Source: Sedimentisphaera cyanobacteriorum
GTDB lineage: Bacteria > Planctomycetota > Phycisphaerae > Sedimentisphaerales > Sedimentisphaeraceae
Length of the DNA: 32,000 bases
NCBI RefSeq assembly: GCF_001997385.1
Contig: NZ_CP019633.1
Coordinates: forward strand, 1,080,001-1,112,000
Reading direction: 5' to 3'
Part shown: positions 1 to 18,846 of the stretch, one piece after another
Layout of the letters: every line of letters begins with the position of its first letter
Numbering within the stretch: position 1 is the first letter of the stretch
Made by a program: the position numbers and the translations under genes
Notes under the pieces: model-generated
Database searches by the model: none
What the model saw: only the letters and a program-made list of their open reading frames with translations
Told to the model about the DNA's origin: nothing

Positions 1-5
1 CAAAC

Positions 6-726
6 AGAAAGAAGCGGGAGATGTCCTCACGGAAGGCCCACGCGCATCAGCTTTTCGCTCAAAGACCTTGAGAAACAGTTCAAAAGAACAGGTTTTTAGC
101 CGCTCTTTATACCAACCGGCAGCTTGGCGTGTATTTCCGAATGAGATTATCTATATGGTCGCTTTGCCGTTTTATAGACGCGTATAAGTGGAGATTGTTC
201 AGAGCTCTGGTGAAGTTGTGGTCTTCCCATCGGATTTTGAAATACACATCGCCGTTGATATAGTCTGTGAGAAAGCGTGTGCCAATCATAAGAGATAAAA
301 GACGCACTGCCTGATTAATATGCTCTATTTCCGAACTGACAAGCACATCACCGCCAGCCTGCATAAAACCTTCCAGCAGACACTCAAACCTTTTTATATC
401 CAATGAGGCCGAGCAGAACTGCTCAGGGGATTCTTCTGATACGGTATTCGCTGCAGAACGTATCATATCGCCGAAATCAAACAAGACAGAACCCTTCATC
501 ACAGTATCAAGGTCGATTACGCAAAGAGGCCGGCCTGTTTCTTTGTCGAGAATAACATTATTAATCTTGGCATCGTTGTGGGTTATTCTAAGGGGAACTA
601 TGCCGGTTTCTATTTTATCCTGCAGAGACACCAGATCAGAGCTGTTTTCAAATACAAAATCAACCCATTCCTGCACAGAAGAAAGCCTGCCCGCCCTGTT
701 CTCTATAGCGGCCTGCTCGAGCTGTC
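6..726. repeat. Direct repeat copy 1 (~721 bp), a long target duplication abutting one end of the IS
   Basis: Manual alignment shows 6..726 equals 2598..3318 at a constant offset of 2592 with one mismatch (a417 vs c3009). Identity stops at 5/2597 and at 727/3319, exactly at the IS termini. Confidence 0.9.
107..726 (-). pseudogene. 3' fragment (about 205 codons plus stop) of the NahK-like kinase gene, a duplicated copy truncated by the IS end
   Basis: The translation is identical to the C-terminal part of the 2699..3832 protein except F vs C at one position. The ORF-track extension to 763 reads into the IS inverted repeat from a TTG and has no counterpart in the intact gene. Confidence 0.85.
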
Positions 727-741
727 CTGACTTCGGCGGTA
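727..741. repeat. IS terminal inverted repeat (transposase-distal end)
   Basis: CTGACTTCGGCGGTA is the exact reverse complement of 2582..2596. Confidence 0.85.
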
Positions 742-751
742 AATTTTCATA

Positions 752-781
752 AGTCCTTGTCAATAAAGGACTCGATTTTTT
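752..781 (+). terminator. Terminator-like hairpin plus T6 run just inside the IS end, oriented inward
   Basis: AGTCCTT (752..758) pairs with AAGGACT (766..772) across a 7-nt loop. It is followed by cgaTTTTTT (T run 776..781). Confidence 0.35.
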
Positions 782-829
782 GCGCAGGCACTACAAACCC
801 TATTTCGGAAGGTTTTTCGGCGGGTGAAA

Positions 830-2452
830 TTACATTTTGTAAGGCGTTGTATTGGTGCTGAGATTAACTGTTTTATAGAGTTTTCTTGCGTCCTCGTTAA
901 TCTTTGATGGCAGGACATATCTGCACTCTGTTTTCTTATCCCAGAGTATGCTCAGCTGCACGTGGTTGAGGGCATTTACAATCCTCGCCACAGACATCGG
1001 CTCAAATCTCAGCCGAACCCTGTAGGCCAGATTTCTCGCGCAGGTTAGAGCGATAAAGCATATCAGTATATGGGCTTTGATTCGTTTCGGCGTCCAGTGG
1101 TATATCGGCCGTATCTTCAGATCGTGCTTGCTTATCCTGAAGCACTCTTCAATCAGCCAGAGCTGCCTGTAATGATCTACTACAGCCGAATCATCCATAT
1201 CCTTAACATTCGTTATAACACCGTGAAGACCATCAAAATTCGCAGCCTCTTCATATTTCTCTTCATCTATCCGGCAATCTATATCGCCGGTAACACGCAT
1301 AAACTTCTTGTAGCCGTAGTTGCTTATAAGTGATTTGGGGTTGCTGCTCTTTTCAAGCTTCTCCTGGAGCTTTCTTATAGCTTCATCCCTGTCGTGCTTA
1401 TTCTTTTTAGCGAGTTTATCGCTGTAGGTAACAATAAGCCTTGTATCTTTGCCGTAATCAAAGCTTCTAAGCGGGGCATTGGATTCTGTAACCTTTGCTT
1501 TCCATTTATCAGTGAGGCTTTTAAGCCTCGCTGCCACAATATACTCAACTCCCTGCTTTTCAAGGTAATCAAGATTAGCCTTGCTAAGCATTGCGCTGTC
1601 TGCGGTGAAGATAACACGCTTGAGGTTGTATTTCTCTTTGATCTTAGGGATTACAGTATGCAGCGTATGCCCTTCATACTGATTGCCGGGGAATACCTCA
1701 TAACCTACTGGAAGCCCTTCTGATGTGGACAGAAGACCAAGGACAACCTGCGGCTGATTGAACTTCATATCCTTGCTGTAGCCGTTCTTTTTGAGCTCAT
1801 CTTCTGTAAATGATTCAAAATAAAGCGTGGTGCAGTCGTAGAAAAGAAGACTTATCTCTTCGCCGAGAAGGCCTTTAGCAGCACTGTGAGCACAGTTTTG
1901 AGCCTTGCTGATAATATCATCTGTGATATTATCCATCATACGGTAAACGCTGTCTAAAGAAAGGTTAATGCCGAAGTCTTTGGAGAGATCCTGAACGCTG
2001 CTGCGTTTGCTCACTGGGTTTGCAAGCCTTGCCATTGTGATATGACGAAGGTTTTTGCCTGCAGACTCTTTGCGTCTATCGAAAAGATTGTTAAAGCCAA
2101 GCTCATTGTAGATGCTGCCGAATACCTCATGGATGCCTGTAGTTATGCGTGCCTGTTCCCTGAGATTCTTTAGATTGACCCGCAAAGGCTTATCATCAAT
2201 GTTTTTGCGGGCAACTATTGCAGCTTCTGCAAGATGCTCAGGCTTGAAAAGTGCCGGCGTTTTCTCGGCCTCAAGCTTGGCCTTCTCGAATTCGGCAAAA
2301 TCCTTGAGCCGCTTAAGCTCTTCTTCTGTGAAGGCTGTGCCGAGATGACGAACTATACGCTGACGAGGCTGGTTCTTCTCGTTGCGATAACTCTCTACAA
2401 TCTGTACCGACTGCTTCGGACTGTTTTTTGATGTCTTTACTCGTATAAACAT
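830..2452 (-). CDS. IS1634-family DDE transposase
   Basis: 540-aa ORF. The N-terminus MFIRVKTSKNSPKQSVQIVESYR... is typical of IS1634-group transposases. Candidate DDE residues lie in LFYDCTTLYFES, VIFTADSAMLS and YRQLWLIEECFRISK (IS4-type Y-R-E-K block). Confidence 0.9.
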   Translation of the reverse strand: MFIRVKTSKNSPKQSVQIVESYRNEKNQPRQRIVRHLGTAFTEEELKRLKDFAEFEKAKLEAEKTPALFKPEHLAEAAIVARKNIDDKPLRVNLKNLREQARITTGIHEVFGSIYNELGFNNLFDRRKESAGKNLRHITMARLANPVSKRSSVQDLSKDFGINLSLDSVYRMMDNITDDIISKAQNCAHSAAKGLLGEEISLLFYDCTTLYFESFTEDELKKNGYSKDMKFNQPQVVLGLLSTSEGLPVGYEVFPGNQYEGHTLHTVIPKIKEKYNLKRVIFTADSAMLSKANLDYLEKQGVEYIVAARLKSLTDKWKAKVTESNAPLRSFDYGKDTRLIVTYSDKLAKKNKHDRDEAIRKLQEKLEKSSNPKSLISNYGYKKFMRVTGDIDCRIDEEKYEEAANFDGLHGVITNVKDMDDSAVVDHYRQLWLIEECFRISKHDLKIRPIYHWTPKRIKAHILICFIALTCARNLAYRVRLRFEPMSVARIVNALNHVQLSILWDKKTECRYVLPSKINEDARKLYKTVNLSTNTTPYKM

Positions 2453-2460
2453 AAATGCAG

Positions 2461-2488
2461 ATTATACGAAATCAAAACATTGTGTCAA
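2461..2488 (-). promoter_or_regulatory. Consensus sigma70-type promoter for the transposase (TTGACA-N16-TATAAT)
   Basis: On the minus strand, TTGACA lies at 2488..2483, followed by a 16-nt spacer and TATAAT at 2466..2461. The ATG (2452) lies only 8 nt after the -10 and no SD is visible. Confidence 0.6.
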
Positions 2489-2581
2489 AAAAATAAAAAA
2501 TTAGGCACTACGAGCGAACCGAACTTAACAAACCCTCATAACAGCCTCAAAACGCACTTTTTGCAGAGTTTTCCACAATCA

Positions 2582-2596
2582 TACCGCCGAAGTCAG
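2582..2596. repeat. IS terminal inverted repeat (transposase-proximal end)
   Basis: TACCGCCGAAGTCAG is the reverse complement of 727..741. Confidence 0.85.
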
Positions 2597-2597
2597 G

Positions 2598-3318
2598 AGA
2601 AAGAAGCGGGAGATGTCCTCACGGAAGGCCCACGCGCATCAGCTTTTCGCTCAAAGACCTTGAGAAACAGTTCAAAAGAACAGGTTTTTAGCCGCTCTTT
2701 ATACCAACCGGCAGCTTGGCGTGTATTTCCGAATGAGATTATCTATATGGTCGCTTTGCCGTTTTATAGACGCGTATAAGTGGAGATTGTTCAGAGCTCT
2801 GGTGAAGTTGTGGTCTTCCCATCGGATTTTGAAATACACATCGCCGTTGATATAGTCTGTGAGAAAGCGTGTGCCAATCATAAGAGATAAAAGACGCACT
2901 GCCTGATTAATATGCTCTATTTCCGAACTGACAAGCACATCACCGCCAGCCTGCATAAAACCTTCCAGCAGACACTCAAACCTTTTTATATCCAATGAGG
3001 CCGAGCAGCACTGCTCAGGGGATTCTTCTGATACGGTATTCGCTGCAGAACGTATCATATCGCCGAAATCAAACAAGACAGAACCCTTCATCACAGTATC
3101 AAGGTCGATTACGCAAAGAGGCCGGCCTGTTTCTTTGTCGAGAATAACATTATTAATCTTGGCATCGTTGTGGGTTATTCTAAGGGGAACTATGCCGGTT
3201 TCTATTTTATCCTGCAGAGACACCAGATCAGAGCTGTTTTCAAATACAAAATCAACCCATTCCTGCACAGAAGAAAGCCTGCCCGCCCTGTTCTCTATAG
3301 CGGCCTGCTCGAGCTGTC
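2598..3318. repeat. Direct repeat copy 2 (~721 bp), part of the intact kinase gene plus 101 nt downstream of it
   Basis: See copy 1. It starts directly after the IS end and ends in the middle of the kinase CDS. Confidence 0.9.
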
Positions 3319-3814
3319 TAAGGCGAAACTTGCCGTCGTGAAAATTGGGGATGGTTTCGTGAAGTTCATCTTGAAAATCTTCCATATTGGAAATAAAACT
3401 GCCGTATGCATAGGCAATATTGAAGAGTTTTTCAGGGTCTTCGAGGCTTTCGTGAGTTTTTCCGTCGATAAAAAGATGACACCTCCAGCAGTTCCCGCTG
3501 CTGTCGGTATAGAAATGCTCTCCACTGCGAGTTTTGAAAACCTTTAGAACACGTTTGTCCAGATCCTCCACCCCCGATTTGGCCAAAGCTGCTCGATGGT
3601 GATCTACTACACGCACCAGATTGTGCATAAGCTTATCGGGCTCAGTAAAAACTGAGGTGTTTATCCGCTGAAATATATAATTGTGTAAAACGCCTTCTTC
3701 CCGTGCAGTGATGTGATAGGTATTGTTTATATTGCCATTCCCGCACCTTTTCGCACAGTCAAACTCACCCCTGATATCAAAAGCTTCGAAGGCCTTTCTG
3801 ATTGTCTTCTTCAC
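2699..3814 (-). CDS. N-acetylhexosamine 1-kinase-like phosphotransferase (NahK/LnpB family, APH fold)
   Basis: Blocks match my recollection of Bifidobacterium NahK: GNGNINNTY, FQRINTSVF, PLRITHNDAKINNVILD, IDLDTVMKGSVLFDFGDMIR, RFLTDYINGDVYF. I prefer the GTG start at 3814, which is preceded by GGAGG-aaaa. The ORF-track TTG at 3832 lies inside the U-tract of the rpmA terminator. Confidence 0.8.
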   Translation of the reverse strand: MKKTIRKAFEAFDIRGEFDCAKRCGNGNINNTYHITAREEGVLHNYIFQRINTSVFTEPDKLMHNLVRVVDHHRAALAKSGVEDLDKRVLKVFKTRSGEHFYTDSSGNCWRCHLFIDGKTHESLEDPEKLFNIAYAYGSFISNMEDFQDELHETIPNFHDGKFRLRQLEQAAIENRAGRLSSVQEWVDFVFENSSDLVSLQDKIETGIVPLRITHNDAKINNVILDKETGRPLCVIDLDTVMKGSVLFDFGDMIRSAANTVSEESPEQCCSASLDIKRFECLLEGFMQAGGDVLVSSEIEHINQAVRLLSLMIGTRFLTDYINGDVYFKIRWEDHNFTRALNNLHLYASIKRQSDHIDNLIRKYTPSCRLV

Positions 3815-3824
3815 TTTTCCTCCG

Positions 3825-3859
3825 AAAATCAAAAGAGACGGCTCTGTTAAAGCCGCCTC
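3825..3859 (-). terminator. Intrinsic terminator downstream of rpmA
   Basis: The minus-sense RNA is GAGGCGGC-uuuaacaga-GCCGUCUC, an 8-bp stem with one G:U, followed by UUUUGAUUUU. The equivalent plus-sense hairpin would have an A:C mismatch, so it is strand-specific. Confidence 0.6.
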
Positions 3860-3885
3860 CTGTTATTCATTTTTAGGTAGCCTTT

Positions 3886-4131
3886 TTATGCTTCAGGGCA
3901 GTCTATATGAACTCTTTTGCCCTGAAATCTCACCTTGCCCTCTTTCAAGGCGAAAAGTGTGTAGTCTTTTCCAAGACCTACATTAAATCCCGGATGGAAT
4001 CTTGTGCCGCACTGACGAACAAGAATTGACCCGGCTTTTGCCTGCTGACCACCGTACAGCTTAATCCCGCGATACTGCGGATTGCTGTCTCTGCCGTTCC
4101 TGGATGAACCCTGACCTTTCTTATGTGCCAT
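3886..4131 (-). CDS. rpmA: 50S ribosomal protein L27
   Basis: [24 protein letters not shown]... is the canonical L27 N-terminus. An RBS (GAGGA) lies 7 nt upstream. Confidence 0.95.
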
Positions 4132-4198
4132 TGATAAATCCTCTTATCAAAAAATTATCAAAATTCAGTTAAACTTTCACTGCTGTGAAAAGTTTATC

Positions 4199-4227
4199 AT
4201 ATTATGTTAAATGCAAATGTCCAGCAA
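4199..4227 (-). promoter_or_regulatory. Candidate sigma70-type promoter for rpmA (TTGCTG-N17-TAATAT)
   Basis: Minus strand: -35 at 4227..4222 and -10 at 4204..4199. It sits between the rpsT terminator and rpmA. The predicted leader of about 60 nt begins in a hairpin (4171..4195). Confidence 0.5.
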
Positions 4228-4240
4228 TTTCTGCCAAACG

Positions 4241-4280
4241 GGAAAGAAAAACCTGCAATTCGACAAAAGAAATGCAGGTT
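4241..4280 (-). terminator. Intrinsic terminator downstream of rpsT
   Basis: Minus sense: AACCTGCA (4280..4273) pairs with TGCAGGTT (4257..4250) across a 15-nt loop, followed by TTTTCTTTCC. Confidence 0.65.
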
Positions 4281-4304
4281 CACAGCTCGAAATTTTAAGA
4301 ATTC

Positions 4305-4586
4305 TCAGCCGGCCTGCTCTTTGCCTTGAAGCTCTTGAAGCTTTTTAGCCATACGAGCTTTGGTTCTTGAGGCGGTATTTTTGTGCATAGTTCCTTTAGC
4401 TGCCACCTTGTCAATGCGTCTCTGCACGGCAAGGTAATACTGCTCTGCCTCTTGAACCTCGTGATTTCTCACTGCAAGCTCAAACTTCTTAATCGCAGTG
4501 CGCACCATACTCTTGCGAGCGCGGTTGCGCTGCCTGCGTTTGACATTCTGCCGAACTCTTTTTTTGGCCGATAAAGAATGTGCCAC
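4305..4586 (-). CDS. rpsT: 30S ribosomal protein S20
   Basis: MAHSLSAKKRVRQNVKRRQRNRARKS... is typical of S20. It has a GTG start with GGAGA 7 nt upstream. Confidence 0.95.
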   Translation of the reverse strand: MAHSLSAKKRVRQNVKRRQRNRARKSMVRTAIKKFELAVRNHEVQEAEQYYLAVQRRIDKVAAKGTMHKNTASRTKARMAKKLQELQGKEQAG

Positions 4587-4941
4587 GTATAAATCTCCCT
4601 GATATTATATTTCTCAAAATCTTTCGACTGAGAGGTTATTCAATCGTTATTCTTAGAAACTGCGAATTATATAACCTGAGAAACGCTTTTCAAGAGAAAA
4701 ACAAAAAAATTTTCAGGTTTCAGAATAGCCGGAAACTAACTCGGATTCAATTTTACAGCGTTACAAATGCACATATCAGCGATTCTGCCCCTTTCCAGCA
4801 GGCCAAGGCTGAAAAATGAACATATTATGATAATTTTCGAAATAAAGATTGCTGGATTTTTTCTTGTGTTTATTTAAAATAGTCTGCTGAGTGTATGATT
4901 AATCAGTAAGAATGAAGCCGCAAGCTTCTCAGGATAATAAA

Positions 4942-5298
4942 ATGTTTATAAAAGCCTTAAAAGCAAAAATTCACAGAGCAAATATCACCGATTCGCAGCT
5001 CGAATACCCGGGGAGCATCGGAATAGACTCCGATCTGCTCGAGGCGTCCGGCATAGCGAATTATGAGGCAGTACTCGTAGCTAATGTGAACAACGGTGAA
5101 AGAATAGAGACCTACGTAGTTCCGGAACCTGCAGGCAGCGGGAAGATTACGATCCTCGGGGCTGCTGCAAGGAAATTTGAGCCTAAAGACGTAGTAATCA
5201 TTATAAGCTTCGGGCTGTACAGCCCCGAAGAGATGAGAACCCATAAACCTCGAGTTGTCTTGGCAGATCATAACAACGGGATCAAAGAAACTCGATAA
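4942..5298 (+). CDS. panD: Aspartate 1-decarboxylase proenzyme
   Basis: MFIKALKAKIHRANITDSQLEYPGSIGID... aligns with the PanD N-terminus, including the self-cleavage G-S site. I prefer the ATG at 4942 (AGGA 7 nt upstream) over the ORF-track start at 4912. Confidence 0.9.
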   Translation: MFIKALKAKIHRANITDSQLEYPGSIGIDSDLLEASGIANYEAVLVANVNNGERIETYVVPEPAGSGKITILGAAARKFEPKDVVIIISFGLYSPEEMRTHKPRVVLADHNNGIKETR

Positions 5299-5310
5299 CT
5301 CAAGGAATTT

Positions 5311-6309
5311 ATGTTTCCGGAACTGTTTAGAATACCTTTCACCGATCTTACGGTAAAAAGCTACGGGACTATGCTGGTGCTGGGTCTTTTCGCAGGTTTC
5401 TGGCTGATAAGGAAAATGTGCGCCAAGGCCGGCACGGGAACCAGCGCAGAAACACTGATAAACACGGCAATGTATTCGCTGATTGCCGGTATTGTTGGCG
5501 CAAGGGCGATGTATGTAGTACACTACAAGGTGTATAAAGAGGGGTTTATGGAAATTTTCGCTGTATGGAACGGCGGGCTTGAACTGCTCGGCGGAGTAAT
5601 ATTAGCGATTGCATTCATCCTGTTCTACCTCTGGAAGCAAAAATGCGACATGCTCACAAGCCTTGATGTACTCTCAGTTGCTTTGCTTGTCGGCATCGCG
5701 GTCGGGCGAATCGGCTGTTTCCTAAACGGCTGCTGCTACGGGCAGGTAACAGACCTACCTGTGGGGGTAGTATTCCCGTATGGTTCCATAGTTTACAATG
5801 CCCAGGCGCATCCGGATCCACTCAGAGACAGAGACGAGCCTTATATTGATCTGCCGGCGAAGTTTTACGGTCTCAATACAGAGAAGGGCTGGATTCCTGC
5901 CGGCGAAGAGAATAAAACGAAATATCCGCTAAAACCCAAAGATATGCTCACCGAGGCAGAGAAGAAACTGGTTAGCAGAGGCGGGCCGTATCAGGCAAAG
6001 CCGGTACATCCTACTCAGCTTTACTCCAGCGCTGCAAACGCTGTTAACTGTCTGCTCGCCTTTGTCTTTTGGCGACGATACGGCTCAGGCAGAAATAATG
6101 ACAAGAAATGCAAGGGCTGCACGTTCAGCCTTGTTTTTATACTGTATTCAATATCCCGCTTTCTGGTGGAATCTTTAAGAGACGACAACCCGTATGAAAT
6201 CGGTATGCTCACGATTTCCCAGCTTATCAGCATCGGGCTTTTCGCTGCCGGAGCTGCAGGATTAATTTACTACTCGACAAGGAAAAAAGCGAATGGGCTT
6301 ATACGATAG
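5311..6309 (+). CDS. lgt: Prolipoprotein diacylglyceryl transferase
   Basis: A multi-pass membrane protein with Lgt blocks GRIGCFLNGCCYG and HPTQLYSS. The start lies 12 nt after the panD stop. Confidence 0.9.
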   Translation: MFPELFRIPFTDLTVKSYGTMLVLGLFAGFWLIRKMCAKAGTGTSAETLINTAMYSLIAGIVGARAMYVVHYKVYKEGFMEIFAVWNGGLELLGGVILAIAFILFYLWKQKCDMLTSLDVLSVALLVGIAVGRIGCFLNGCCYGQVTDLPVGVVFPYGSIVYNAQAHPDPLRDRDEPYIDLPAKFYGLNTEKGWIPAGEENKTKYPLKPKDMLTEAEKKLVSRGGPYQAKPVHPTQLYSSAANAVNCLLAFVFWRRYGSGRNNDKKCKGCTFSLVFILYSISRFLVESLRDDNPYEIGMLTISQLISIGLFAAGAAGLIYYSTRKKANGLIR

Positions 6310-7150
6310 AGATTACGTACAATATAATTACCGGCCGAGGCATACAAATCCAACAGGCTTTCCTTCAATCACGCCTGTTGTGAAGATACTTCTGATTGCA
6401 AACATAGCGGCCTTCGCAATCGACCAGATCATGGGCGGTCAGATTAGTATGCTCTGTGCGCTGATAAACGAACCGCTAACCAGATCGCTGGAGCTTTGGC
6501 GGTTTGTAACGTTTCAGTTTATGCATGCCAGCGTGGGGCATATACTTATGAATATGATCGGTCTTTATTTTCTCGGCACGCATTTCGAGAGCAAATGGGG
6601 CTCTCAGCGATTTCTCGCGTTTTATCTAACCTGCGGGGTTGTTGGCGGGATATTTTTCTTCCTCTTTAAGATTATCGGATTTATCGGTCCGGGAGTTTTG
6701 GTGGGAGCATCAGGAGGCGTACTTGGACTGCTCGCTGCTGCTGCAATACTTTCGCCGCAGTTTGTTGTGTTTATATTCGTTTTCCCCGTACCGATAAGAA
6801 TGGCCGCAATAGTTATCACGATAATGTACGGGGTGAACGTTTTATCCGGAGGGCAGAATGCCGGCGGAGATGCTGCACATATTGGCGGTATGCTCGCAGG
6901 AGCGATTTACTGCTGGTGGCCAAAGATAAGGCGGACAAAATTCGGGCAGTTTGTAAGATCCAGCACGAAGGATTTTTCCTCGCATAAGCCGTTTCACTCG
7001 CAACCTGAACACCCTAATACGGTTACTCAGGCCGAAATAGACAGGATACTCAAGAAAATTCACGAAGAAGGCATTCATAAATTGTCCCAGAGAGAGCGGA
7101 ATATCCTTAAAAACGCCACCAAAAAAGAGCGTGAAAAGAACAGGCATTAA
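6293..7150 (+). CDS. Rhomboid-family intramembrane serine protease
   Basis: WRFVTFQFMHASVGHILMNM, the GASGGVLGLL catalytic Ser motif and the HIGGMLAG catalytic His motif are present. It overlaps the lgt 3' end by 17 nt. Confidence 0.85.
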   Translation: MGLYDRDYVQYNYRPRHTNPTGFPSITPVVKILLIANIAAFAIDQIMGGQISMLCALINEPLTRSLELWRFVTFQFMHASVGHILMNMIGLYFLGTHFESKWGSQRFLAFYLTCGVVGGIFFFLFKIIGFIGPGVLVGASGGVLGLLAAAAILSPQFVVFIFVFPVPIRMAAIVITIMYGVNVLSGGQNAGGDAAHIGGMLAGAIYCWWPKIRRTKFGQFVRSSTKDFSSHKPFHSQPEHPNTVTQAEIDRILKKIHEEGIHKLSQRERNILKNATKKEREKNRH

Positions 7151-7151
7151 A

Positions 7152-7174
7152 AGCTTGGGCTTGCGCTCAAGGCT
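7152..7174. terminator. Weak hairpin between the convergent rhomboid and pepF genes (possible bidirectional terminator)
   Basis: AGCTTGGGC-ttgc-GCTCAAGGCT forms about 9 bp with a bulge and a wobble or mismatch. The only U-tract, on the minus sense, is short (TTTAAT). Confidence 0.3.
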
Positions 7175-7195
7175 GTAAAGAGCAGAAGCGGCTTG

Positions 7196-8917
7196 TCAGC
7201 TTTTCCAAAGCTCTTTTCGAACTGTCTCAACAAGCGGAGCGATATGCTGTCTTGACATATCGAAACTAACTCCAGCGGTTTCAAACAGTTCAGGCAGAGG
7301 CCTCGACCCGCCGAGGGAGAGAGCTTTCCAGTAGTCGCTGAGCGTTTTTTCGTTGTTGCTGAGGCTGTTCTGCCATATACCGAGGGCTCCAAGCTGAGCA
7401 ATTCCGTATTCGATATAATAAAGCGGCACCTTGAAGAAGTGCAGAATTCTCTGCCACTGCCTTGCAGTGAGCTGCTCGCAGTAGGAAATATCCAGCGGAG
7501 CTGGGCGGAATCTTTTGTTCAGATCTAACCAAATGCCTGCAAGCTCATCCGGATCGGTGATTCTCTCTTCGTAGATGCGGTGCTGGAAGGCATCCACCAT
7601 CGCAACGCTGGCAAGGATTTGGAGCGTTTTTTCGAGCTGAATACATTCGGCCCTTCTGCACTCCTGCCCGCTTTGGTATATCAATGAAAGATACGGCATC
7701 ACCAGCAGTTCCATACTCATCGAAGCCACCTCGCAGAATTCCATCGGTGCATGGCGGTATTCAAATATCTGCTGGTCTCTGCAGGCGAAGGTATGGAAGG
7801 CGTGCCCGCTTTCATGGAAGATTATTCTAAGGTCATCATTTACTCCAACAAGGTTGGCAAATATAAACGGAACCCCCGCATCAAAAAGAGTTGACTGATA
7901 CCCGCCCGGAGCCTTGTTTTTCCTGCTTTCCAGATCAAACAGACCTTCCATTCGCATCATATCAAATATACCTGCAAGCCTTCCGTTTAGCTGATGGAAC
8001 ACGCTTGAGGCCTTAGAAAGGAGCTCTTCTGTATTTTCAAAGGGCTTCAGCGGAGGATTGCCGTCCGGGTCAACAGCCAGATCCCAAGGCATGAGCGTAT
8101 CAACGCCGAGACGGAGCTTTCTGTCTTCGTAAATTTCAGATAAGGCAGGTACAACCACCTTCTCAATCGCTTCGTGAAATTCTTTGCAGTTTTGCGGGGT
8201 ATAATCAAAGCGGTGCTTGTCTTGAAACACGTATTCGAGATAATTCTCAAAGCCCGCATTCTCTGCAATCCTCGAGCGAAGCTCCACCATCTCTGCAAAG
8301 AGCGATTCAAAGCTTTGCCTGTCTGTAAATCTCTTGCCCGCAGAAGCCCTCCAAGCAGATTCCCTGATGTTTCTCTCGGGCCTTAGCTGATATTTTGCCA
8401 TCTGCTGGAAAGTCTGCTTTTTCCCTTCAAACTCCACAAGCTGCGAACCTGCAAGCTTTTCGTATTTCTGAACGAGAAGAGACTCCTCAGTAAAAAGCTC
8501 AACATTCTTCTCGGTGTATATTTCCAAATCCGTCTGCAAGGCTCTGCTGAGGACTTCAGATTTCTCTTTATCCAGCGGATATTCTTTTAGGAGTTTGCTT
8601 GTCTTTTTGTCGATCTGATTGCTGAAAGCTATCACAAGCGGACGGATGGCAGTTGTGAAATGCCTGTAGAGCTTTTCCACTTCCTTATCGCTCGTATCGC
8701 AAGTGAGCTTGATATTCAGCATAGAACCGTATTGATCGATTGCGCTGAAGAGCTCTGCCTTGAAACGCAGAAACTCCCAAACCCCTTCCCTGCTCTGCAC
8801 AGGAAAATCCAAAAGCTCGTTGAAAAGTTTTTCAGTTTCTTCTCTGCTTGAAAAATCAGGGCTGTTTTCTATAAATTCCCTTTTTCGATACAAACCAAGT
8901 TTGCTGAAATCAGGCAT
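7196..8917 (-). CDS. pepF: M3B-family oligoendopeptidase F
   Basis: It carries the HESGHAFH zinc motif and the length and architecture of PepF. I prefer the ATG at 8917 (MPDFSKLG...), which avoids a 64-nt overlap with the upstream gene. The ORF-track start is 8989. Confidence 0.85.
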   Translation of the reverse strand: MPDFSKLGLYRKREFIENSPDFSSREETEKLFNELLDFPVQSREGVWEFLRFKAELFSAIDQYGSMLNIKLTCDTSDKEVEKLYRHFTTAIRPLVIAFSNQIDKKTSKLLKEYPLDKEKSEVLSRALQTDLEIYTEKNVELFTEESLLVQKYEKLAGSQLVEFEGKKQTFQQMAKYQLRPERNIRESAWRASAGKRFTDRQSFESLFAEMVELRSRIAENAGFENYLEYVFQDKHRFDYTPQNCKEFHEAIEKVVVPALSEIYEDRKLRLGVDTLMPWDLAVDPDGNPPLKPFENTEELLSKASSVFHQLNGRLAGIFDMMRMEGLFDLESRKNKAPGGYQSTLFDAGVPFIFANLVGVNDDLRIIFHESGHAFHTFACRDQQIFEYRHAPMEFCEVASMSMELLVMPYLSLIYQSGQECRRAECIQLEKTLQILASVAMVDAFQHRIYEERITDPDELAGIWLDLNKRFRPAPLDISYCEQLTARQWQRILHFFKVPLYYIEYGIAQLGALGIWQNSLSNNEKTLSDYWKALSLGGSRPLPELFETAGVSFDMSRQHIAPLVETVRKELWKS

Positions 8918-8925
8918 TTTCAAAC

Positions 8926-9903
8926 TCACTTTCCAATGGCCTTTTTCTTGTAGAATTTCGTTCCCGCAGACATATTGAACGATTTCCATGTTGTCCAGTC
9001 GTCCGAGGTTTGTTCGTTTTCGATGGCATCGTTGGCAAAATTGAGCTTAGCGTCTAAATCGTCCAGATAGCTCACCATAAGTGCTTCGAGAGTTGAAGGA
9101 ATTTTGGGCGAACCGAATTCATATTTACCGTGATGGGATACGAGGATGTGCATGAGGTTGTCAACGATTTCCTTATTAGGCTCAATGCCCTTCTCAAGCA
9201 GGACATCTGTTTTCTGATCGAGCCATATTGCAGACTGCACAATATGGCCTACAAGCTGGCCGGTGTTTGTATAGCCGAATCCGAGGGCGTATCTGAGCTC
9301 CTCTGTTTTGGCTAAGTCGTGCAGGAAAATCCCCGCCACTACCAGCTCGCCCTGCACCTGCGGATAATACGGAAGAATCCCTACTGCCGCTTTGAGCATA
9401 TTATTCGTATGCTCCAGCAAACCTCCCAGATAGGCGTGATGCATTTTTACAGCGGCCGGTGCCTTGCGGAAATTCTCCATCAGCTGCTCGTCTGCGAGAT
9501 ACTCATCCATCAAAGCCTTCAGATACGGGTCTTTTATCCTTGAAAGAATCTCACATATCTCGCTGTACATCTTGTCAATGTCTTTATCAGTAGCAGGCAG
9601 GAAATCTGCCACATTCACCTCGGAAGTGTCGATCACCTCTACTCTGTTTACGACAATCTGGAGCGAGTCCTTGTAAAGCTCTGTTTTTCCGTTTACTCTA
9701 ATAAATCCTTCTTTGGGCAGGCTTTGGTATGTCTCTTCGGAGGCATTCCACATCCTGCAGTTTACCTTGCCGGTTTTATCGGAGAGAAACATCGCTATGT
9801 ACAAATCACCTCTTGATGTATTCCTAAGCACCGGCTGGGTAACCATAAATATATCATTCAGGGTTCGGCCTGGTTTAAGTTCGTTTATAAACTCGTGGGG
9901 CAT
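8926..9903 (-). CDS. YhaM-family 3'-5' exoribonuclease (OB fold plus HD domain)
   Basis: An N-terminal OB-fold region is followed by HD-domain blocks HHAYLGGLLEH, FLHDLAK, LVSHHGKYEFGSPKIP and YLDDLDAKL. These are collinear with my recollection of B. subtilis YhaM. Confidence 0.8.
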   Translation of the reverse strand: MPHEFINELKPGRTLNDIFMVTQPVLRNTSRGDLYIAMFLSDKTGKVNCRMWNASEETYQSLPKEGFIRVNGKTELYKDSLQIVVNRVEVIDTSEVNVADFLPATDKDIDKMYSEICEILSRIKDPYLKALMDEYLADEQLMENFRKAPAAVKMHHAYLGGLLEHTNNMLKAAVGILPYYPQVQGELVVAGIFLHDLAKTEELRYALGFGYTNTGQLVGHIVQSAIWLDQKTDVLLEKGIEPNKEIVDNLMHILVSHHGKYEFGSPKIPSTLEALMVSYLDDLDAKLNFANDAIENEQTSDDWTTWKSFNMSAGTKFYKKKAIGK

Positions 9904-12336: not shown

Positions 12337-15554
<3,218 letters not shown>

Positions 15555-15562
15555 AAAGCTGC

Positions 15563-18846
<3,284 letters not shown>

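Follow-up and report, generated by a model that had tools for sequence, protein, structure and literature searches.

An IS1634-family insertion sequence flanked by a 720-bp direct repeat at the mutL-kinase junction of Sedimentisphaera cyanobacteriorum, a probable case of long target duplication

The window that we have analysed, a stretch of 32,000 nucleotides from the genome of Sedimentisphaera cyanobacteriorum (Planctomycetota), contains an insertion sequence (IS) of the IS1634 family that lies between two direct copies of a 720-bp segment. Judging from the sequence of the locus, it is very probable that a single such IS transposed into the junction between two convergent genes, mutL and the gene for a NahK-like kinase, and duplicated 720 bp of its target. 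Long target duplications of variable length have been known for IS1634 and IS1549 since 1998-99.

The IS extends over positions 726..2597 (1,872 bp), lies on the minus strand when oriented by its transposase gene and is present as a single copy within the window. Its inverted ends are perfect over 16 nt, reading CCTGACTTCGGCGGTA at the transposase-distal end (726..741) and the complement of CCTGACTTCGGCGGTA at the transposase-proximal end (2582..2597), or over 17 nt if a chance extension into the flank is counted. The C found at 726 and again at 3318 may be counted with the IS or with the repeat; since CCYGACTTC makes up both ends of the IS in every relative, each time after a target T, we have adopted the symmetric reading, in which the IS is 726..2597 and the repeat measures 720 bp. 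The only long ORF of the IS (830..2452, minus strand) encodes a DDE transposase of 540 aa that is 100% identical to AQQ10217.1, and a promoter-like site, TTGACA-16-TATAAT at 2461..2488 on the same strand (12/12, by consensus match only), lies inside the IS, 9 nt upstream of the transposase ATG. The transposase matches Pfam DDE_Tnp_1 and, with the NCBIfam model NF033559 ("IS1634 family transposase"; cutoff 100), scores 375.2 bits over profile positions 1-482 of 483, whereas the next-best family model, IS4, reaches 35 bits, which is under its own cutoff. The catalytic residues D206, D285 and E435 are invariant in the 27 sequences of the relatives' alignment, and Y428 and K442 (seven residues past E435) are invariant as well, with L rather than R at Y+3, a variant of YREK.

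IS1634 is now treated as a family of its own, the members of which are 1,500-2,000 bp long, have one ORF, share the inverted-repeat consensus C-----YT and usually lack the arginine of YREK (PMC2266710). The ends of the element, which read CCTGACTT with C at position 1 and T at positions 7 and 8, fit this consensus; the model score, the DDE triad, the size and the single ORF fit likewise, and on these grounds of sequence the element is a member of the IS1634 family. The first-pass annotation had recognized the family correctly and had placed it as a group within the IS4 family, an older arrangement that no longer stands. When the transposase was compared by sequence with solved structures no match was returned; only a fold search, with an AlphaFold model of pLDDT 79.6, gave a best match, to the Tn5 transposase (E 7e-7). 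In the S. cyanobacteriorum genome, transposase genes with 99-100% identity number at least nine, those besides AQQ10217.1 including AQQ08391, 08610, 08643, 09023, 09585, 09746, 09945 and 10122; together with the perfect repeats of the sister genome (see below), this number is an indirect sign of transposition activity. A scan of the genome collection gave a closest copy at 59%, with none nearer.

Outside the two ends of the IS, 6..726 is identical to 2598..3318 (721 nt) except for one mismatch, A at 417 against C at 3009, and a direct repeat this long cannot be the product of chance. The match breaks off on both sides, where base 5 is C against G at 2597 and base 727 is C against T at 3319. 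The left copy of the target duplication thereby occupies 6..725 (720 nt, or 721 with the C at 726; first base A, last base T) and the right copy 2598..3317 (720 nt), and the codon that holds the mismatch specifies Cys and Phe in the two copies and Ser in Sedimentisphaera salicampi, which favors neither allele as the ancestral one. The repeated segment takes in the final 30 codons of mutL with their stop, 7 nt of spacer and the final ~205 codons of the kinase gene; because it spans the 3' ends of both convergent genes, mutL and the kinase gene both stay full length. At 1..99 (plus strand) stands the 3' end of mutL, 32 codons and the stop, which lies in the left copy from base 6 onward and is continuous with the full-length gene, its frame 1 reading QTERSGRCPHGRPTRISFSLKDLEKQFKRTGF before the stop and being identical to the C-terminus of the S. 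cyanobacteriorum MutL protein P0247, which has 652 aa and four MutL Pfam domains and the C-terminal endonuclease region of which ends in a CPHGRP motif. The idea that the start of the repeat at base 6 reflects a contig end was considered and rejected, as 1..99 continues the complete 652-aa MutL on the same 2.95-Mb contig. On the far side of the IS, the last 30 codons of mutL with the stop codon (2598..2691, plus strand) survive as a dead 3' fragment that is fused to the IS end in the frame ERSGRCPHGRP...TGF followed by the stop.

The intact kinase gene runs on the minus strand over 2699..3832, with its last ~205 codons in the right copy of the repeat; NCBI starts it at 3814, 6 codons further in, which gives a protein of 371 aa (P0001, 100% identity). 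A dead fragment comprising the last ~205 codons and stop is left at 107..725 (minus strand), and the ORF at 107..763 is a chimera that has its start within the IS end and continues into this fragment. The kinase carries an APH domain (Pfam PF01636) and matches the solved N-acetylhexosamine 1-kinases 4OCU, 4WH1 and 4OCJ over residues 16-363 with E values of 3.5e-55 to 5.5e-54; by homology, it is a NahK-like enzyme of the APH fold. Much of this picture had been drawn in the first-pass annotation. The 721-bp direct repeat with its one mismatch was borne out, and the inverted ends, which had been given as 15 bp, are indeed perfect and measure 16 nt. The repeat had been described as ~620 nt of the kinase gene plus 101 nt downstream, and the IS as an insertion inside a kinase gene that remained intact; the kinase portion and the full length of the kinase gene both hold, whereas the "101 nt" prove to be the 7-nt spacer together with the mutL 3' end, and the segment spans two convergent genes, both of which were spared.

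One alternative is that the 720 bp are single copy in the cell and that the contig path is chimeric, owing to a repeat that was resolved wrongly or to a population that was mixed. Collapsed IS-spacer-IS cycles are indeed seen in short-read contigs of relatives, but the present sequence comes from a cultured strain and from one contig of 2,951,611 bp, the two copies differ by one base, the full-length MutL and kinase proteins at NCBI draw on different copies, and two other complete genomes as well as chromosome-scale long-read MAGs show an identical architecture. Because of the single contig, the one-base difference and this recurrence, we consider an artefact highly improbable. No genome paper for strain L21-RPul-D3 was found in a literature search.

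A site without the IS had been sought in a relative, and it was found in the sister species S. salicampi, the nearest relative examined, where locus L037 is collinear with positions 1-730 and 2598-9820 of the window and carries the mutL-kinase segment once, with neither IS nor duplication. The empty junction expected for S. cyanobacteriorum would read caaac, a single copy of the 720 bp and then ctaaggcgaaac. The single-copy site implies that no duplication predating the IS existed in the common ancestor, and it bears on a second alternative, in which slippage or unequal crossing-over first produced a tandem 720-bp duplication and the IS landed later exactly at its junction. In that case the IS ends, which join the repeat at either end without a base between them, would owe their position to a coincidence that must recur at every relative, and this order of events is the least probable of all those considered here.

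S. salicampi also harbors the same kind of IS elsewhere. The copies in its complete genome (CP021023.1) are 90% identical to the window element at the protein level and have the common termini CCTGACTTCGGCGGT, and all six of the recovered copies (6/6) have perfect repeats abutting both ends, with lengths of 43, 73, 97, 186, 355 and 1,743 bp, the longest of which contains a whole sulfatase gene (462 aa). More distant relatives, at 45-78% identity, were drawn from long-read MAGs and metagenomes, and CCYGACTTC-ended elements were found in the Planctomycetota, Melioribacteraceae, Bacteroidota, Gammaproteobacteria and other groups. Repeats of 19, 28, 42, 80, 185, 209 and 222 bp flank the IS in Melioribacteraceae MAGs and repeats of 59, 133, 154, 202 and 478 bp in a Pseudomonadales MAG, in which, in addition, repeat mates of 77 and 111 bp are swapped between IS copies; other relatives have repeats of 52, about 57, 780, 894 and about 1,190 bp. 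Altogether, both flanks could be matched for 25 of 41 elements, which show long, variable duplications of 19-1,743 bp, and 13 of the 41, with at least 300 nt of flank per side, have no matching repeat within the available flanks, three swapped-mate elements being counted apart. Among the 41 elements there was no repeat of 2-18 bp, and the 5-6 bp typical of the family was never seen.

Most members of the IS1634 family are credited with AT-rich target duplications of 5-6 bp, and the repeats of IS1634 and IS1549 with 8-514 bp, for which no model was proposed (2008 review, PMC2266710). A length of 720 bp exceeds the latter range, yet it is not extreme and falls well inside the range for this lineage; thus the first-pass annotation was right to set the duplication at or beyond the long end of what had been described, as far as published elements go, though not with respect to the element's own relatives. 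It had also held that a transposase from a family with short, fixed duplications would speak against the interpretation, and most IS1634-family members do make short ones, but in elements closely related to this one they are long and variable wherever both flanks could be matched.

The same survey is what weighs on a third alternative, that two IS copies inserted in the same orientation 720 bp apart, on sister chromosomes or in a recent ancestor, and that homologous recombination between them then left one IS between two copies of the segment. The product would have exactly the sequence observed, a target half-site ending in T would still be expected at each junction, and the swapped repeat mates of relatives indicate that IS-mediated recombination does occur. 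Against this, two nearby insertions would have to be assumed for each of 25 independent elements, which come from at least seven genomes, not one element has kept a short duplication, and the repeats of the recovered S. salicampi copies are perfect in 6/6 cases at six different lengths. Recombination between two insertions accordingly seems to us very unlikely, if less remote than an artefact of assembly, and we return to a single transposition as the preferred account, in agreement with the first-pass annotation.

The target sites provide a clue as to how such a transposition could proceed. The cuts at the locus are caaac^AGAAAG on the top strand and GAGCTGT^CTAAGG as read on the bottom strand, and both follow the T of a TTYT^Y half-site. 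Among 186 distinct junctions, 87% have T at position -1 and 86% a pyrimidine at -2, with T accounting for about 57% at -3 and -4. We considered whether the T adjoining each IS end might be part of the IS and rejected this, since the other copy of the repeat has T at its outer edge (position -1) in 40 of the 43 original half-sites that were reconstructed (with a pyrimidine at +1 in 34), and the T must therefore derive from the target. That both cuts come after T in the same kind of half-site suggests two strand transfers that were spatially uncoupled. In the mechanism that we propose, the two 3'-OH ends of the element would have been joined to opposite strands of the target at sites 720 bp apart, and host DNA synthesis would then have copied the 720 nt between the joints on both sides, so as to yield mutL-D-IS-D-kinase (D being the duplicated segment) with one complete 3' end for each gene. 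The duplication would thus have been made in a single transposition event, and the gap would presumably have been filled by strand-displacement or replicative synthesis. A broader proposal, for and against which the case appears to us evenly balanced, is that the CCYGACTTC clade never makes a 5-6-bp duplication, that its ends integrate independently at inverted TTYT^Y half-sites with 19 bp to at least 1.7 kb between them, and that transposition itself duplicates gene ends or whole genes.

Long duplication is a behavior that is not confined to mycoplasmas and mycobacteria and that marks a widespread clade. Published lengths end at 514 bp; the range now reaches 720 bp here and, elsewhere, 894 and 1,743 bp in perfect repeats. 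The T-rich half-site common to both cuts is a concrete clue that each end picks its own site, and a duplication of this kind can leave two convergent genes whole or yield a second copy of a complete one. If the proposed mechanism is true, an IS of this kind could land inside or between genes without killing them, and the clade would offer both a natural system for uncoupled strand transfers with long gap repair and an overlooked route of gene duplication. Young copies in two cultured Sedimentisphaera species (the transposase genes of S. cyanobacteriorum and the six recovered copies of S. salicampi) provide material for direct experiments.

Among known systems, the Tn5 / IS50 transposase (IS4 family; PDB 1MUH, 3ECP) resembles that of the present element in DDE chemistry and as the best structural match of the predicted fold, with an identity of about 12% and TM-scores of only 0.33-0.39, and it differs in the fixed 9-bp stagger made within one synaptic complex, from which the two strand transfers proposed here would depart. 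ISGka5 of Geobacillus kaustophilus, an ordinary IS1634-family member for which a 6-bp duplication was observed experimentally (PMC8024623), has in common with our element the family, a DDE transposase without the YREK arginine and C-----YT ends, whereas its duplications are of the AT-rich 5-6-bp type and no examined repeat of the CCYGACTTC clade is shorter than 19 bp. IS1549 of Mycobacterium smegmatis (Plikaytis et al. 1998, cited in PMC2266710) belongs to the same family and also makes long direct repeats upon insertion, in a host of another phylum and within the 8-514 bp reported for IS1634 and IS1549 together, as against 720 bp here. IS1634 itself, from Mycoplasma mycoides subsp. mycoides SC (Vilei, Nicolet & Frey 1999, cited in PMC2266710), is alike in family by the NCBIfam model, in its single ORF and size near 1.9 kb, and in its short inverted repeats and long, variable direct repeats; it is unlike our element in host, Mycoplasmatota rather than Planctomycetota, and in the length of its repeats, which the 720 bp of S. 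cyanobacteriorum and the 1,743 bp of S. salicampi both surpass.

The direct duplication flanking the insertion sequence (IS) is as the first-pass annotation described it, with bases 6..726 of the window recurring in the same orientation at 2598..3318 (721 nt), a single mismatch between the copies (417 A vs 3009 C) and a sharp stop of the match at both edges. The IS is bounded by perfect inverted repeats of 16 nt, reading CCTGACTTCGGCGGTA at 726..741 and the complement of this at 2582..2597, and the C at 726/3318 can be assigned either to the IS or to the repeat. Because the sequence CCYGACTTC marks both IS ends in all relatives and is preceded by a target-derived T, we read the ends symmetrically, which gives an IS of 1,872 bp (726..2597) and a repeat of 720 bp; there is no further copy of the IS within the window. 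The sole long ORF of the IS (830..2452, minus strand) encodes a transposase of 540 aa, and 9 nt upstream of its ATG, still inside the IS, lies a perfect match to the sigma-70 consensus (TTGACA-16-TATAAT, 2461..2488, minus strand), which is a consensus match only.

The duplicated segment consists of the 3' ends of two convergent genes, namely the final 30 codons of mutL with its stop, a 7-nt spacer, and the final ~205 codons of a kinase gene, likewise with its stop. The kinase gene that remains intact, on the minus strand at 2699..3832, encodes a protein 100% identical to a 371-aa Sedimentisphaera cyanobacteriorum protein, and its earlier designation as NahK-like is upheld by an APH domain and by full-length matches to solved N-acetylhexosamine 1-kinases (E 3.5e-55). 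The annotation had described the rest of the segment as 101 nt downstream of the kinase; the kinase portion of that description stands, but the remainder is not mere spacer, since the plus-strand translation of 1..99, QTERSGRCPHGRPTRISFSLKDLEKQFKRTGF*, is identical to the C-terminus of the annotated 652-aa S. cyanobacteriorum MutL. The left repeat copy supplies the 3' end of the complete mutL, its kinase part being a dead fragment; in the right copy the roles are exchanged, with the kinase completed and the mutL part dead. Both genes are full length despite the insertion. We also considered whether the start of the repeat at base 6 might be a contig-end effect, and rejected this because full-length mutL runs into the left copy. 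A chimeric minus-strand ORF of 218 aa (107..763) begins at a TTG in the IS end and continues into the dead kinase fragment; since it lies downstream of the transposase gene in the same orientation, expression of a truncated kinase C-lobe is possible. The window also contains two tandem minus-strand paralogs of GH2 beta-galactosidase (12337..15432 and 15563..18724), which are 91% identical over 220 nt covering their 5' ends and upstream sequence (15335-15554 vs 18627-18846), other matching stretches within the genes being at 72-86%; gene conversion or a common regulatory or signal region could account for this.

It is unlikely that this repeat-IS-repeat arrangement (D-IS-D) arose as an assembly artefact, since the source genome is a single contig, one base distinguishes the repeat copies, each of two full-length annotated proteins draws on a different copy, and the same architecture appears again in other complete genomes. 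That a tandem duplication was already present before the IS arrived is contradicted both by the exactness with which the IS abuts the repeat, to the base, and by the sister species S. salicampi, whose kinase and MutL proteins are 87% and 89% identical to those of S. cyanobacteriorum. There the two genes are convergent across a 7-nt spacer without an IS, and the locus is collinear with window 1-730 and with 2598-9820. S. salicampi therefore has one copy of the segment, with the single-copy junction that the annotation had proposed to look for in relatives, and the duplication is thus not ancestral.

The transposase ORF scores 375 bits against the NCBIfam model NF033559 "IS1634 family transposase" (cutoff 100) and all other IS family models stay below their cutoffs, which bears out the original family assignment. 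Its Pfam domain is DDE_Tnp_1. Alignments with sets of 16 and 26 relatives show no variation at D206, D285, E435, Y428 or K442, and Y+3 is a residue other than arginine. A search of solved structures by sequence alone detected nothing; the AlphaFold model (mean pLDDT 79.6) has the Tn5 transposase as its top solved-structure match (E 7e-7). The protein is 100% identical to AQQ10217.1, which is encoded together with the 371-aa kinase on one S. cyanobacteriorum contig of 2,951,611 bp. This genome carries at least nine transposase genes of the same IS at 99-100% identity (seven distinct 540-aa proteins under nine AQQ accessions), which indicates a recent expansion.

Among relatives of the IS, the length of the duplication varies widely. 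The IS of the complete S. salicampi genome (CP021023.1; 90% protein identity, same 15-nt termini, 1,872-1,874 bp) is flanked at all six recovered copies by perfect direct repeats with edges exactly at the IS ends, of 43, 73, 97, 186, 355 and 1,743 bp. Each copy of the longest (locus L117, 3112..4854 and 6727..8469) contains an entire 462-aa sulfatase gene, so that here transposition has doubled a whole gene, one to each side of the IS. At L119 (about 4500..4854 and 6727..7312) the flank holds, besides the 355-bp duplication, several diverged 30-90-nt repeats of 82-96% identity. Repeats are of about 57 bp in Limihaloglobus sulfuriphilus (69% identity); 19, 28, 42, 80, 185, 209 and 222 bp in two Melioribacteraceae assemblies; 59, 133, 154, 202 and 478 bp in one Pseudomonadales MAG; and 52, 780 (98.5% identical), 894 (perfect) and about 1,190 bp (96%) in further relatives. 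Three IS copies of the Pseudomonadales MAG (CBDBDZ01) have their repeat mates on other copies, in that 111 bp to the right of L017 are found to the left of both L015 and L022, and 77 bp to the right of L022 are found to the left of L017, an exchange that indicates post-insertion recombination among IS copies. Other layouts were also seen. At L024 / L078 (1690..5727) the same IS ends lie ~4.04 kb apart, with two additional ORFs (419 aa and 271 aa) before the transposase and a 57-bp perfect repeat still flanking the whole, which may represent a nested second element or a passenger-carrying derivative. In the short-read contigs L001, L044 and L075 the IS is followed by a ~224-252-bp spacer and then the IS start again, with terminal overlaps of 99 nt (L044) and 60 nt (L075); this is the expected look of a D-IS-D collapsed in a de Bruijn graph, and could be misread as a circular element.

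Abutting repeats are present at 25 of the 41 complete elements that have 300 nt or more of flank on each side; mates are swapped at three, and the available flank shows no matching repeat at 13. No element has a repeat of 2-18 bp. These figures bear on the possibility that two close insertions in the same orientation recombined, which would yield an identical sequence; such an event would, however, have to be repeated at every element, and no element has kept a short duplication. The first interpretation, a long duplication made by transposition, is thus supported.

The junctions themselves share a half-site. Among 186 distinct junctions the base adjoining the IS end (-1) is T in 87%, -2 is a pyrimidine in 86%, and -3 and -4 are T in about 57%. 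When 43 original half-sites were rebuilt from the repeat copy away from the given IS end, 40 had T at -1 and 34 had a pyrimidine at +1; the T therefore belongs to the target and not to the IS. Each duplicated segment thus starts A(R)AA and finishes TTYT, that of the window starting AGAAAG and finishing GCTGT. The simplest mechanistic reading of these sequences would be two strand joins at separate half-sites, followed by copying. Each IS end would be attached through its 3'-OH to the 5' side of an A, on its own strand and at its own half-site, with the two joining sites on opposite strands in a 5' stagger whose spacing would not be set by the transposase complex. Strand-displacing or replicative synthesis would then copy the intervening tract on both sides. 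We offer this joining and repair chemistry for the window IS as a proposal only.

Long variable duplication has itself been known for 25 years. Beyond the routine are how broad the clade is, a range that now reaches 1.7 kb and takes in duplication of a whole gene, the common half-site as a mechanistic clue, and the neat way in which two convergent genes are spared. The window element is a maker of long, variable duplications of the IS1634 family, in a phylum new for such elements. It shares with that family the variant YREK motif, without arginine at Y+3, that is its defining mark (De Palmenaer et al. 2008, PMC2266710), and its size and C-----YT end consensus agree with the family table of the same paper. 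The two known long-repeat makers of the family produce 8-514 bp (PMC2266710), and ISGka5 gave an experimental duplication of 6 bp (PMC8024623). The 720 bp of the window IS exceeds any length in the literature examined but is ordinary within its own clade.
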